DNA of 64,000 bases from the NCBI GenBank assembly GCA_016187335.1, contig JACPJW010000001.1:192001-256000 (forward strand), read 5' to 3'. Position numbers and translations under genes: made by a program. Shown piece by piece: positions 50,551 through 62,400 of the stretch (its first letter is position 1; each line of letters starts with the position of its first letter). Origin of the DNA: Candidatus Aenigmatarchaeota archaeon (GTDB lineage Archaea; Aenigmatarchaeota; Aenigmatarchaeia; GW2011-AR5). A model generated the notes under the pieces. That model was not told the DNA's origin. It was given only the letters and a program-made list of their open reading frames with translations, and did no database searches.

Positions 50551-50600
50551 GTTTGCGAACTTTTCAGTTCCGTTTTGATGGAACTTTTCTGAAAAGTTCC
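50551..50600 (-). other. 16S BHB micro-intron, 50 nt (~Ec 374)
   Basis: UUGC/GCAA helix, GAAC/GUUC stem; family-1 hairpin. Confidence 0.88.
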
Positions 50601-51342
50601 TTGCAAAGGTTTCGCGCCTGCTGCGCCCCGTAGGGCCTGCGTTCATGTCTCAGAACGCATCTCCGGGCTATCGCTCTCACGACCCGTACGGATTACAGCC
50701 TTGTTGAGCAATTATCTCAACAACAAGCTAATCCGCCGCAGTCCCATCGTTCAGTGCATTGCTGCTTTCAGCGAAGATGCCTTCCAGCAATTATCGCCTA
50801 TCGGGTATTATTCCCACTTTCGCAGGATTATCCCCGTCTGAACGGCAGGTTAACTACGTGTTACTGAGCAGTGCGACGAGGTCTTGCACCTCACGTCTCG
50901 CATGGCTTAGCCGAACCCTGATAAAGGTAGTCTCCGGCGGGATCAACCGGAATTGTGCGGGAAAACACAAACCCTTGTGGTTATGTGTCCCTACCATTTG
51001 ATAGAGTCTTGCCTACCCATACCTTTGTTCACTTGTAAGCATGCTTACCAGCTCATATTTATCATGCAGCGGAAGTGTTTCTTCACGAAAAAGGCTGTTG
51101 CCTTAAAATCCGAAACGACGCCTTGCTGTCATGAATAATCATTTCAGTTTTGACTCATCCGCTTTTTACAGCAGAATGTGCCGCGTAATTATTATCCAGT
51201 CAAAAGCGTTCGTAAGAACTGCTTCGCTTTAACGAGCAAGCCAGCTAGCTAGAAGTATAGTTGCCAAACTATGCCCGTCTCAATACTTTCAAGGCACGAT
51301 TCTTAGAACCGCACCACACCATCAATAAATAAAGAAGGGAAC

Positions 51343-51359
51343 TATTAAAAGGTTTTTGG
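51343..51359 (-). promoter_or_regulatory. BRE/TATA promoter of 16S
   Basis: Minus-strand CCAAAAACC-TTTTAATA. Confidence 0.6.
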
Positions 51360-51713
51360 TTGCCCGAGCCAGAACAAGTTTTGCAGCGGCATTATCCCGC
51401 GGATTTTTCTCAATAAATTGGGGACAAAACCTCTTATACTTAACTTTTTCAGCGGAAGCATTTGGTATAGTTAGGTTTTTATTCTTGCGTTAAGGAATTT
51501 TTTTGTAAGCACAAACCTGGTGATGAAACCGGAGAAACAAATCGGGTTCTGAAACAGTGAAGCGGATAAATAGGAATATATAATTATAACTTGTTTCACA
51601 TACATGGAGAACTGAGGGTTCTCCTGTATAGCTGCTCGTGGCGTAAGGCGCCTTATAAGGTTATTTACCTGGCGGACAAAGAAAATCTGTGTGATGGCTG
51701 ATGGTGTTCTGGC

Positions 51714-52028
51714 ATGGAAGAAGAAATGCTGCTTGAGATAAAGAAAGCGGAGGAGAAAGCGGAGGAAATAGTGAGGGAAGCCGAGAAAAGAAAGGGTGAA
51801 ATGATAAGGGAAGCCGGGCTTGAAGCGGCAAGGTACAGGGAACGGGAGATAGAGAAATTAAAAAAGCAGTCAGAAGAGCTCATAGCCAGGGAATCGGAAA
51901 AAATTTCCGCCAGAAGCAGGGCAATGATAAAAAAAGCGGAGGAAGACGCGAAAAATCTGGGCCCGGACAAAAGGAAGTCGGAGGAAGCGAAAAACTACCT
52001 GAAAAAAGAATTCAGGGACCTGTTTTGA
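51714..52028 (+). CDS. atpH: A-type ATP synthase subunit H (G)
   Basis: EIKKAEEKAEEIV; first gene of the operon. Confidence 0.8.
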   Translation: MEEEMLLEIKKAEEKAEEIVREAEKRKGEMIREAGLEAARYREREIEKLKKQSEELIARESEKISARSRAMIKKAEEDAKNLGPDKRKSEEAKNYLKKEFRDLF

Positions 52029-52037
52029 GGAGAGAAG

Positions 52038-53873
52038 ATGTTTTACCCGGAAAGGATGTCAAAAGTCACCGTAGCGGCGTCGAAGGCCCACATAAACGGC
52101 GTGATAAACACGCTCTACGAACTTAGGGCCCTTCATATCGAGGAATACATGCCGCGTAAAGAGGGGGACCTTCCTATAGGCTCGCCCCTGGAGGACGCCG
52201 AGCAGATATCGGAGCTTCTTGTCGACATACACTCGCTGAAAAGGATTTTCCCTTACGCCGCGGGAAAGAAAAAAACCCCGGGCAGCCTGAAGAAATTCGC
52301 AGCCTTTGTGAAAAAAATAAAGTCTGGCGCCGATTCCGTAAACCGGAAATTAAGGGAGCTGGATGAAAAAATAAAATCCAACGACAGGGAAATGGAAGAC
52401 CTGGAGTTCCTCTCAAAATGCGGCATAAACGACCCCGAGATTCTCACGGAATACAAAACGCTGCAGATGGTTTCCGGGTATGTGGGCAATCCGGAAAAGC
52501 TTTCCGTCAGCGGGGCCGCTGTTTTCCTCGGCAATGACCGCAAGAATGCGCCCGTCGTGGTGTTTTTCCGGAAGGAAAACAGGAGCGGGGTTGCGGAAGC
52601 GCTGGAAAAGGCAAGGTTCAATGAGTACAAAATCAGGTCGAAGCCGGCTGGCGGCGTGAAAGCGGCGCTGGACGCGGCAGGAAAAAAAAGAAGAAGTTTT
52701 TTGGAGGAAAGAAAGAAGCTTCTGGATGACCTGGAAAGCATCGGAAAGAAAAACTCTTCTTTTCTTAATGGCATAGAGGAAAGCCTGCTCTCGATGATAC
52801 AGCGCGCGGAATCGCCGCTCAAATTCGCAGCGGGCAAATATGTCTTCATAGTTCAGGGATGGATTCCCGAAAAGAACGCGGGAGCGCTCGCTGAAAGGAT
52901 AAGGGAAATAAGCCCGAACATTTACCTCAAGGTCGAGGAGCCCCGTGGCGACCACGGCGCTGAAGCTGCGCCGACAAAAATGAAGAACCCCAAGATTGTG
53001 AATTCGTTTGAATTTTTCCTTAACCTGTATTCGCTGCCGAAATACGACGAGATCGACCCGAGCTTCCTTATATTCCTCACGTTCCCGCTTTTCTACGGCA
53101 TGATGCTGGGCGACATAGGCTACGGGATTGTGCTTCTTGTCATCGCATCGGTCCTGCGCTTCCGAGTCAAAAAAATCCGCGCGCTGATGGACGTGACCAT
53201 ACTGTCTGCGCTGTCAACGATATTTTTCGGCTTCATCTTCGGCGAGTTTTTCGGTTCGGAGCAGGTTTTCGGGTATCACCTTGTTCCCTACCTTCACAGG
53301 CTTGAGAACGTCAACGGGCTCATCGTTGCTTCAGCGGCACTGGGCTTTTTTCACGTAAATGCCGGCATCATTCTTGGATTTGTCAACGAGCTCAGAAGCC
53401 ACGGCGCCGTGAAGGCTGTGACTGCAAAGCTGTCCTGGCTTGTGTTTGAAGCGGGGCTGATTATTTTTGCCCTCAACTCCATGAAGTTCATAGAGGTCAA
53501 TGCATACATCCCCGGGGCTCTCATGGCCGTGTCTGTTATAGGCCTGCTGAAAGGCGAAGGGTTCCGCGGCATCATAGAAATACCGTCCCTGATAGCCAAC
53601 ATTTTGTCGTATTTGCGGCTCACCGCAATAGGGCTTGCCTCTGCGTCGCTTGCCATTGTCGTGAACAAGATGGCGGGAAGCATGTTTGCTGCGGGCGGGT
53701 TTTTATTTTTTGTCGGGGTCATCGTGCTTGTGATCGGCCATACCATAAATCTCGCCCTGGGCATAATTGACGCGTTCCTGCAGTCGCTGCGCCTTCATTA
53801 TGTGGAGATGTTCACAAAATTTTACCACGGCGAGGGAAAGCCCTACAAGCCGTTCGGGGCTGGAAAGAAATGA
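52038..53873 (+). CDS. atpI: A-type ATP synthase subunit I (a)
   Basis: EIDPS, GMMLGDIGYG, LSYLRL, LQSLRLHYVEMF. Confidence 0.95.
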   Translation: MFYPERMSKVTVAASKAHINGVINTLYELRALHIEEYMPRKEGDLPIGSPLEDAEQISELLVDIHSLKRIFPYAAGKKKTPGSLKKFAAFVKKIKSGADSVNRKLRELDEKIKSNDREMEDLEFLSKCGINDPEILTEYKTLQMVSGYVGNPEKLSVSGAAVFLGNDRKNAPVVVFFRKENRSGVAEALEKARFNEYKIRSKPAGGVKAALDAAGKKRRSFLEERKKLLDDLESIGKKNSSFLNGIEESLLSMIQRAESPLKFAAGKYVFIVQGWIPEKNAGALAERIREISPNIYLKVEEPRGDHGAEAAPTKMKNPKIVNSFEFFLNLYSLPKYDEIDPSFLIFLTFPLFYGMMLGDIGYGIVLLVIASVLRFRVKKIRALMDVTILSALSTIFFGFIFGEFFGSEQVFGYHLVPYLHRLENVNGLIVASAALGFFHVNAGIILGFVNELRSHGAVKAVTAKLSWLVFEAGLIIFALNSMKFIEVNAYIPGALMAVSVIGLLKGEGFRGIIEIPSLIANILSYLRLTAIGLASASLAIVVNKMAGSMFAAGGFLFFVGVIVLVIGHTINLALGIIDAFLQSLRLHYVEMFTKFYHGEGKPYKPFGAGKK

Positions 53874-61477: not shown

Positions 61478-61478
61478 A

Positions 61479-61751
61479 TCACAGCTTTACGTCAAATCCC
61501 TTGAAATTGCCCAGAGCCTCTTCCCATGTAACGCTGACGTCGTCTATCTTCGCCCTCGGGGGGCCCTGCCTTATTTTCTCCACCAGCTGCTCTATTTTAT
61601 CTTCATGGCCTTCCACAATCACTTCCACCCTGCCGTCGTCCAGGTTTTTCACAAAGCCGTTTAAGCCGAGCAGTTCAGCGTTCTGTTTCGTAAAAGAGCG
61701 GAACGAAACGCCCTGAACCCTTCCGCTGATATAAATGCAGCATCTCTTCAT
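61479..61751 (-). CDS. acyP: Acylphosphatase
   Basis: GRVQGVSFR, GFVKNLDDGRVE. Confidence 0.95.
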   Translation of the reverse strand: MKRCCIYISGRVQGVSFRSFTKQNAELLGLNGFVKNLDDGRVEVIVEGHEDKIEQLVEKIRQGPPRAKIDDVSVTWEEALGNFKGFDVKL

Positions 61752-61835
61752 GGAATAATGTTGCAGCCGAAAACATAAAAACGGAAGAAAGAATTTGAGG
61801 AGCTGCTCGGGTTGCTTCCAGCGATTGCAGTGAGA

Positions 61836-62135
61836 CTAAGCCTGTTTTCTCTTTTTCCTCTTGATTTTTACCGAGCCGTCTTCAACCTTAACTTCAAGCT
61901 CATCTGCCTTGACGTTTTCTGGCAGCGACATGCTTCGCCTGAATTCTTTCTGGAACGCCTCTTCTTTGTAAAAACCTTTTCTCTTCTCCACTTTCCTTCC
62001 TTTCTTCTCCGCTGAGATATTGATGAAGCCCTTGTCTATTGAGACCTTTATCTCGTCCCTGCTGAATCCCGGCGCCGCTATGTTTATCTCCTCGGGCTTT
62101 TCTTCCCAGTAGAATCTGAACGGCTTCTTTGCCAT
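61836..62135 (-). CDS. Small heat-shock protein (Hsp20)
   Basis: APGFSRDEIKV, FRRSMSLPENV. Confidence 0.88.
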   Translation of the reverse strand: MAKKPFRFYWEEKPEEINIAAPGFSRDEIKVSIDKGFINISAEKKGRKVEKRKGFYKEEAFQKEFRRSMSLPENVKADELEVKVEDGSVKIKRKKRKQA

Positions 62136-62229
62136 AAAAACACCAGAAAATATTCTTGAGGATAAAAATAAATTGTTATTTTTGGTCAAACTTTCCTTCT
62201 TTGATTAAACTTTCTTTTAAGAAAGTTTA

Positions 62230-62400
62230 TGCGGGAGACGAGATTCGAACTCGCGAAGCGAATCGTCACCTTTTCCGTGCACGCTTTTGCACAGCAAAAG
62301 GGTGCTAACGCACTACCCGTTTGCGAACCTTCCCTTTTGATTGAACTTTTGGGAAAAGTTCACCTCAAGGTAGCCCCTTTGGCCGCTTGGGTACCCCCGC
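62230..62400 (-). tRNA. tRNA-Leu(GAG) with two introns (37/38 62319-62362; variable arm 62262-62304)
   Basis: Spliced product is an 84-nt cloverleaf; BHB CGUU/GACG in the variable arm. Confidence 0.88.

Follow-up and report, generated by a model that had tools for sequence, protein, structure and literature searches.

Introduction

The origin and movement of the protein-spliced introns of archaea is an old open question, and to our knowledge the only well-known case of their movement is the tRNA-to-tRNA ‘transposition’ of the Thermoproteales. For these transposed tRNA introns, the literature describes a recent intron gain that is limited by the need to form the motif known as bulge-helix-bulge (BHB) (Fujishima et al., 2010, Mol Biol Evol 27:2233; via PMC4090602, 10.64898/2026.10.13.758758), and the transposition is thought to act at the DNA level (PMC4090602). 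Non-coding 16S rRNA introns that consist of a hairpin only have also been described from the Thermoproteales, and locus 374 is listed among their sites for introns of Pyrobaculum and Caldivirga (Jay and Inskeep, 2015, PMC4496867). The text of that article, as searched, draws no sequence link between rRNA and tRNA introns. Both tRNA-to-tRNA intron transposition and hairpin-only 16S introns at locus 374 are already known. Here we describe a short hairpin cassette, family 1, in a stretch of 64,000 nucleotides (nt) of a Candidatus Aenigmatarchaeota genome (contig JACPJW010000001.1, C2:192001-256000; the window). The cassette occurs in introns of rRNA and tRNA genes, among them an intron at site 374 of the 16S rRNA gene and one between positions 37 and 38 of the tRNA-Leu(GAG) gene, and also as free copies outside introns.

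Results

A hairpin cassette recurs in rRNA introns, tRNA introns and free copies

The genome that contains the window, G000, from a groundwater archaeon (1.01 Mb, two contigs, 47% G+C, 91% complete), was compared with G001, a groundwater Aenigmatarchaeota metagenome-assembled genome of the same genus (56% complete, 16S rRNA gene not in the assembly), with which its alignable DNA is only ~72% identical. G005 represents another genus, and G013, G011 and G003, used for the tRNA-Leu(GAG) comparison, represent three others. Pattern counts were taken over 41 genomes, and wider comparisons covered 70 genomes of the order and 371 genomes of the phylum. Splice junctions were predicted by the rule that RNA is cut after the second nt of each 3-nt bulge, with a 4-bp central helix (H), an inner helix (h′) and an outer helix (h).

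Family 1 is a dispersed repeat whose core on the plus strand reads TTTTGAT-xx-AACTTTT-loop-AAAAGTT-xx′. At least 109 strict copies are present in G000, 80 on the plus and 29 on the minus strand, a bias from which gene orientation and replication direction are not separated. The exact pattern was counted 91 times in G000, 26 times in G001 and 0-8 times in the 39 other relatives, while a reversed control pattern gave a single match across all 41 genomes and none in G000 or G001. Read as RNA, an intron copy begins with 1 nt and continues with arms 1 and 2, between which lies a short loop, followed by the tail AUCAAAA(C/G)GG, arm 3, a 4-nt guide and 2 bulge nt. Arm 1 is a pyrimidine arm (xxAACUUUUC), arm 2 its purine complement (GAAAAGUUxx′), and arm 3 a second purine arm that is also able to pair with the first. 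Beside AAC stands a variable base, with which arms 2 and 3 covary (G/C/C, A/U/U, C/G/G). Within RNA genes, arms 1 and 3 form the inner BHB helix and the guide pairs with the exon as the central 4-bp helix. The guides are site-specific and matched to their exons, with GCAA:UUGC, CUGA:UCAG, CCAC:GUGG and CGAA:UUCG as guide:exon pairs. Clear family-1 intron sites lie in 16S rRNA (374 and ~722), in 23S rRNA and in tRNAs (anticodon, D and T loops), and the copies that are not introns lie in 3′ trailers, spacers and tandem arrays. When the combination of long third arm and guide was sought in 185,579 species genomes, the only relevant match was in G001, the other 19 being bacterial chance matches.

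The 16S-374 and tRNA-Leu introns belong to one family but are not closest relatives

A model’s reading of the bare DNA letters, made before this analysis (the sequence-only reading), had taken the insertions in 16S rRNA and tRNA-Leu to be the same intron. It had placed both correctly to the base, and the two stretches, 50 nt at 50551-50600 and 44 nt at 62319-62362, both on the minus strand, are indeed alike: 39 of 44 aligned bases are identical, with one 6-nt gap. The alignment score of 56 stands against 2.5 ± 6.7 in 2000 dinucleotide shuffles, the best of which reached 34 (z 7.9), and 5000 random 44-mers drawn from the genome included none that scored as high. They are nonetheless only two of the at least 109 cassette copies, and they are not each other’s closest relatives. 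Among all candidates in the genome, the tRNA-Leu intron is most similar to three T-loop introns, the 37/38 intron of tRNA-Ser(GGA) and a D-loop intron at C2:745434, with the 16S copy sixth among non-self matches. Its body shows 2 differences in 38 nt from the T-loop and other tRNA introns, as opposed to 5 differences and the 6-nt gap from the 16S copy, and a D-loop intron in a different tRNA of G005 (locus L034, G005:C109:114-157) is 98% identical to it. Conversely, the best non-self match of the 16S-374 intron within the genome is a cassette at C2:8370, and the tRNA-Leu intron comes about eighth. The two also differ in subtype, the 16S intron having the loop CAG, the tail ACGG and a long third arm, and the tRNA-Leu intron the loop CCC, the tail AGGG and a short third arm. 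The G005 D-loop intron, for its part, ends GGAAAT and is followed by a tandem GAAGTTTCATCAAGAAACAGA repeat.

Alignment to the 16S model with cmscan places the 50-nt insertion between ...UUUGCAA and UGGGUG..., between conserved model positions, and by our own reading this site corresponds to 374/375 in E. coli numbering. The exon UUGC pairs with the guide GCAA at all four positions of the central helix, with AA|G and AC|U as the bulges, and an inner helix of 11 bp and an outer helix of 4 bp (ACCU/GGGU) complete a BHB that is also the minimum-free-energy fold (-24.5 kcal/mol, z -3.5). The tRNA-Leu insertion sits between G37 and G38, so placed that the 6-bp anticodon stem is the outer helix, and its inner helix has 10 bp. 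As the sequence-only reading had stated, the same guide fits the exon UUGA at three of four positions; the A.G mismatch adjoins the 5′ bulge, and the predicted motif is a relaxed BHB. Its predicted junction is that of the intron-less allele of G001 described below.

The last 10 nt, GTTCGCAAAC, are identical in the pair, and behind a family-1 tail they occur nowhere else in G000 or in the 70 genomes of the order. Pairing with UUG, which is present in both exons, requires CAA, so only 3 nt of this ending (the G and the bulge AC) are free of constraint. Moreover, since the tRNA-Ser(GCU) introns of G000 and a further relative, G014, end GTAAAC, an ending like GCAAAC is not exclusive to 16S, and because other family members have central helices with three of four pairs too, the mismatch in tRNA-Leu is not a strong marker of polarity. 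The proposal of intron transfer between rRNA and tRNA holds in so far as one family is common to both kinds of gene, but from the sequences a direct copying of the tRNA-Leu intron from the 16S-374 intron is not supported.

A second family was also named in that reading, which pointed to likeness between introns of the 16S 530 loop and the tRNA-Leu variable arm. This likeness is upheld (z 7.4, central helix 4/4 in both), yet the two introns are not nearest neighbours. The family-2 pattern, xxxxCCCUUUU...AAAAGCG-x′x′x′x′-CGGAAA, has 57 matches compared with 6 for its control, and its stem covaries. Family 2 behaves as family 1 does.

The tRNA-Leu intron is absent from an otherwise identical allele

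In G001, a tRNA-Leu(GAG) gene in the same tRNA neighbourhood is 100% identical to that of G000 over 38 + 104 nt, including the variable-arm intron, and exactly 44 nt are absent; the 104-nt identity runs from position 38 to the end of the contig. G013, G011 and G003 likewise have no intron at 37/38. With the site empty in all four relatives, parsimony places the gain in the G000 lineage, in agreement with the earlier proposal that the tRNA copy is the derived one. The variable-arm intron has a different distribution, being identical in G001, replaced by other bodies at the same site in G013 and G003, and missing in G011. An exon-1 match search found no second copy of tRNA-Leu(GAG) in G000. Two metagenome contigs from an independent 2017 study (X5 and X6) cover 62294-63400 without differences and carry the filled allele, which is therefore not an artefact of a single assembly. 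Other pairs of tRNA genes in G000 and G001 also differ in the presence or body of an intron while their exons are at least 95% identical.

A 16S-type intron has replaced a resident tRNA-Ser intron

The tRNA-Ser(GCU) gene of G001 carries at 37/38 a 50-nt family-1 intron that is identical to the 16S-374 intron of G000 at 47 of 50 positions. Across the 70 genomes of the order it is the top non-self match of the 16S-374 intron (94%, 83 bits), followed by the 16S-374 intron of G005 (84%). Positions 32-35 of this tRNA are UUGC, the same strand with which the GCAA guide pairs in 16S rRNA. At the same site, G000 and G014 have a different, mutually homologous, family-2-like intron (CAGCCCUUUU...CUUGUAAAC), and several genera have none. 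Because G000 and G014 share this older and different body, a 16S-type intron has replaced the resident tRNA-Ser intron in the G001 lineage, with the junctions unmoved. The tRNA-Ser(GCU) of G001 is a better case for an intron link between rRNA and tRNA than tRNA-Leu.

The 16S-374 site has a patchy distribution

At 16S-374, the intron of G005 likewise belongs to the long-arm subtype; its exon is UCGC and its guide GCGG, a compensatory change within the helix. All other relatives in which the site is covered are empty, except G027, which has a family-2-like insert. In the phylum, the junction of 374 exon and cassette was found in 2 of 371 genomes.

Other features of the window and its surroundings

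The remaining features are collected with the introns in Table 1.

Table 1. Coordinates within the window of the rRNA and tRNA features and the cassette copies discussed in the text.
Feature	Position	Strand	Evidence
16S rRNA gene	47678..50953	-	Rfam SSU_rRNA_archaea, 1072.6 bits, full length
16S intron, E. coli site 374, family-1 long third-arm subtype, guide GCAA	50551..50600	-	50-nt insertion relative to the model, perfect hBHBh′
Second family-1 16S intron, ~site 722, guide CCAC:exon GUGG	50091..50134	-	44-nt insertion; H 4/4, h′ 9, h 3
16S 530-loop intron, family 2, guide CUGG:exon CCAG	50339..50389	-	51-nt insertion relative to the model; H 4/4
Family-1 intron in 23S rRNA, guide CUGA:exon UCAG	17908..17953	-	H 4/4, h′ 10, h 6
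Pair of free family-1 cassettes immediately following the 16S 3′ end	47573..47677	-	Repeat copies at 47577-47602 and 47646-47676
Free family-1 cassette, opposite orientation, immediately upstream of the GGAGG and ATG of a gene in a V-type ATPase operon	53895..53926	+	Repeat copy and context
tRNA-Leu(GAG) gene, two introns	62230..62400	-	ARAGORN call once both introns are removed
tRNA-Leu 37/38 intron, family-1 short third-arm ‘CCC/GGG’ subtype, guide GCAA:exon UUGA	62319..62362	-	H 3/4, h′ 10, h 6; precisely missing in G001
tRNA-Leu variable-arm intron, family 2, 43 nt	62262..62304	-	H 4/4, h 4
Free family-1 cassette (not an intron) directly after the tRNA-Leu discriminator base	62185..62229	-	Repeat copy; hairpin fold -9.7 kcal/mol

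Both large rRNA genes are swollen by insertions. The 16S rRNA gene spans 3276 nt where the model has 1478 positions, with about ten insertions, and the 23S rRNA gene (Rfam; 16275-22038, minus strand) spans 5764 nt where the model has 2987. The site of the 530-loop intron is empty in 13 of the 14 relatives in which it is assembled, and G014 has a different 30-nt insert there. In eight 16S loci of relatives (L001, L002, L004, L007, L009, L010, L015 and L018), an intron stands just behind GCGGUAAU in the 530 loop, a place without an intron in G000, whose own sits 9 nt upstream; different lineages use neighbouring sites of this loop.

ARAGORN called no tRNA on the unspliced window, and removal of 62319-62362 and 62262-62304 gave tRNA-Leu(GAG). 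The start of the free cassette behind this gene is also seen in G001, as far as the end of the G001 contig. A TATA-like box, TTAAATAATTTT, lies on the minus strand in 62401-62450 and ends ~10 nt upstream of tRNA position 1, a position that suggests a very short or absent 5′ leader; the G001 gene has a similar TATA-like box in an otherwise different flank. A further tRNA gene with long inserts is legible by eye at 63090-63260 on the minus strand (GCUCCCGUAGUCUAGA... to ...CCGGCGGGAGCA) and was missed by ARAGORN. A 151-nt contig from a 2024 groundwater metagenome (X7) matches the 3′ part of tRNA-Leu (62222-62318) with one difference, and the match ends exactly at 62318, the edge of the intron; it may represent an intron-less allele of another population. 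An exact search for the 3′ half of the tRNA-Leu intron in the metagenome contigs of the Joint Genome Institute (JGI) gave one match, a chance match in unrelated sequence, and among the contigs of four DNA runs compared with 47000-63400, those over the 16S rRNA gene proved to be joints from 16S genes of other organisms that were uninformative on strain variants.

Elsewhere in G000, head-to-tail arrays of 2-3 family-1 cassettes without spacers lie at C2:803322-803400 and C1:15068-15125. The closest in-genome relative of the 16S-374 intron, at C2:8370-8440 on the minus strand, is a long-arm cassette between inverted GAUGAUG/CAUCAUC flanks that forms no BHB and is 94.6% conserved in G001 (C50:2332-2387). 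A candidate intron in a protein gene at C2:176187 turned out to be the 37/38 intron of tRNA-Ser(GGA). Several other identities for the cassette were considered and set aside. Its orientation to genes is inconsistent for a promoter, and copies inside rRNA introns do not suit a plain terminator. As a box C/D small RNA it lacks conserved boxes, UGAUGA/CUGA appearing only where the variable stem or loop letters spell them, and the Rfam scan gave no hit for such an RNA; the tandem copies have no spacers, as a CRISPR-like array would. A permissive BHB scan around all cassette copies returned 106 of 109 as ‘hits’ and was too loose for its count to be used. A stricter script was too rigid, and the out-of-register solution that it gave at tRNA-Leu is excluded by the G001 allele.

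Discussion

We consider it probable that family 1 is a proliferating family of BHB mini-introns without a protein of its own, which settles where an exon offers a UUGN helix strand, and that the tRNA-Leu copy is a lineage-specific gain. The host encodes both enzymes that excision would call for. A splicing endonuclease, EndA, with N-terminal and catalytic domains (C2:410532-410810, 97 bits, 202 aa) is closest to the M. jannaschii enzyme 1A79, and a ligase, RtcB, lies at C2:765179-766518 on the minus strand (528 bits) in two pieces (model positions 23-426 and 1-26) with 17 nt between the matches. Given this pair of genes and the anatomy of the inserts, excision by the host pathway is the natural reading, and the introns are presumably spliced out. 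No reverse transcriptase was detected in the 91%-complete genome, no TnpB was found in it, and it holds no credible Y1 transposase, the best PF01797 match falling below the cut-off at 16.7 bits and containing an internal stop. That match, a weak Y1 C-terminal-like fragment at C2:791846-791974 on the plus strand with an internal TAA, is possibly an IS200/IS605 relic.

Under this reading, EndA and RtcB would remove an insert exactly, and the family would proliferate within the genus as copies reach new sites and overwrite resident introns, persisting in essential RNA genes only if a BHB is formed. Copying would take place in DNA without an enzyme encoded by the element, for example through hairpin-provoked template switching or short-homology conversion, and selection would then filter for excisable insertions. 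Because free, inverted and tandem copies exist, copying at the DNA level would be independent of splicing. The 16S-374 copy would be the older of the pair and the tRNA-Leu 37/38 copy a later gain from another family member, a mosaic of a tRNA-type body and a 16S-type last 10 nt.

Several observations weigh against parts of this account. The DNA-level mechanism is drawn from negative results and from the free copies, and a DNA route by itself does not explain why inserts coincide exactly with splice junctions or why a guide should nearly match on arrival. The only EndA that was found is a single alpha-type unit, a kind of enzyme that published work describes as strict about the motif, and the BHB at tRNA-Leu 37/38 is imperfect and the minimum-free-energy fold given by RNAfold is a symmetric 4x4 internal loop instead of a BHB. 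In a rough and weakly supported 16S tree, G000 and G005 do not group together, so vertical descent of the 374 intron is not established, and this intron may have been gained twice or lost several times. Finally, conservation of the cassette core is so strong that the identity of two copies says little about their age, and donors are for this reason not assignable.

The most immediate alternative is that the tRNA-Leu intron is a direct and recent copy of the resident 16S-374 intron that has kept the 16S-specific guide. In its favour, the GTTCGCAAAC end behind a family-1 tail is unique to this pair among the 70 genomes of the order, the guide is perfect for 16S and fits only three of four positions in tRNA-Leu, the two exons offer similar surroundings (ACCUU(U)G ... 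GGGU/GGUA), and the tRNA copy is the younger. Yet the bodies are of different subtypes, separated by 5 substitutions and a 6-nt gap, six copies in G000 outscore the 16S copy against the tRNA-Leu intron, and one in G005 is nearly identical to it; the shared signal that is free of constraint shrinks to 3 nt, the tRNA-Ser(GCU) introns show a comparable GTAAAC ending, and 3/4 helices occur in other members as well, making direct copying quite unlikely. Spread could also be directed by the guide at the level of RNA, with excised introns re-entering guide-complementary RNAs by reversed EndA and RtcB reactions before being fixed in DNA. The GCAA-guide subtype is found at three UUGC/UUGA sites beside a helix (16S-374, tRNA-Ser(GCU) 32-35 and tRNA-Leu(GAG) 32-35), the DNA difference between G000 and G001 matches the predicted splice junctions to the base with no target duplication, and resident introns were replaced without any shift of the junctions, all of which suits such a route. 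Selection on essential genes, however, would also leave exact junctions, and tRNAs with G34 often have UUGN at 32-35. Nor could this route produce the many copies that stand in no BHB and occur in either orientation and as tandem repeats, and the genome yielded no reverse transcriptase. We regard RNA-level spread as unlikely, and are just as doubtful of its broader form, in which the GCAA-guide cassette colonises any structured RNA that shows UUGC/UUGN beside a helix and rRNA and tRNA genes swap introns through RNA.

Two further explanations were weighed. The cassette might be a DNA element like a repetitive extragenic palindrome (REP) or the end of an IS200/IS605 insertion sequence (IS), moved on single-stranded DNA by an HUH (Y1) transposase, in which case the introns would simply be those insertions that can be excised. 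TTTTGAT followed by a perfect hairpin resembles both kinds of element, and TTGAT is the target of ISDra2; the 80:29 strand bias and the tandem and extragenic copies point the same way. Against this, the strand bias is not separated from a bias in gene orientation, the only Y1_Tnp trace is the 16.7-bit fragment with a stop and is accompanied by no TnpB, and the motif is conserved across the order, whereas REP families usually track their own transposase; we think this origin very unlikely. Alternatively, nothing may have moved, and the introns may be ancient and independent, their likeness reflecting a selected module such as a protein-binding or folding hairpin. A nearly invariant core that also occurs in other families of the order, covariation of three arms that implies structural selection, and a variable-arm intron conserved at 100% between genomes that are ~72% identical are consistent with such selection. 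What contradicts it are the empty and filled sites between congeners with identical exons, the different bodies at the same site in sister lineages, the rise in copy number from 0-8 to ~100 in one genus and the restriction of the 16S-374 junction with a cassette to 2 of 371 genomes of the phylum. The presence and absence data go largely against the possibility, raised with the sequence-only reading, that both insertions are ancient and independently derived, and we hold an explanation without any mobility to be highly improbable.

For the proliferating mini-intron family that we favour, the material now includes a defined cassette, a datable gain with its empty site, an in-place replacement, and nearly identical introns in 16S rRNA and a tRNA whose exons share the guide-pairing strand. 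With these, the movement of archaeal introns becomes testable through guide-exon pairing, EndA specificity and circular intron RNAs. There is also a practical side, in that standard finders overlook tRNA genes carrying such inserts, and 16S primer sites are broken by them. A full-text literature search returned no description of a cassette family common to rRNA introns, tRNA introns and free intergenic copies, no such family in Aenigmatarchaeota, and no comparable pair of empty site and replacement.

Among known systems, group II intron retrohoming, in which exon-binding and intron-binding sequences (EBS/IBS) pair, offers a functional analogy only, namely an intron-borne guide complementary to the exon; the cassette has no ribozyme and no reverse transcriptase, its guide is 4 nt long, and excision would fall to host proteins. 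Bacterial REP elements with their RAYT transposases and the subterminal hairpins of IS200/IS605 are similar in having a short conserved 5′ motif with a palindrome, about a hundred mostly non-coding copies and a strand bias, but no cognate HUH transposase was found here, copies stand inside essential RNA genes, adapted to a splicing motif, and the host is an archaeon. The 16S introns of the Thermoproteales share with ours locus 374, a BHB at the junction, short length, the capacity to form a hairpin and the lack of a homing endonuclease gene; the present ones belong to another phylum, and to a 16S rRNA gene with about ten introns. The transposed tRNA introns of the Thermoproteales are a further such system, in which related introns also occur in non-homologous genes or positions and are present or absent among close relatives with conserved exons. 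Unlike them, the G000 family spans 16S rRNA, 23S rRNA and tRNAs and extends to free copies that lie in trailers, in spacers and in tandem arrays. Its cassette is defined, with three arms and a 4-nt guide that matches the exon, its host belongs to a DPANN lineage with a single alpha-type EndA, and the comparison of congeners documents both an allele with the site empty and the replacement of one intron by another.

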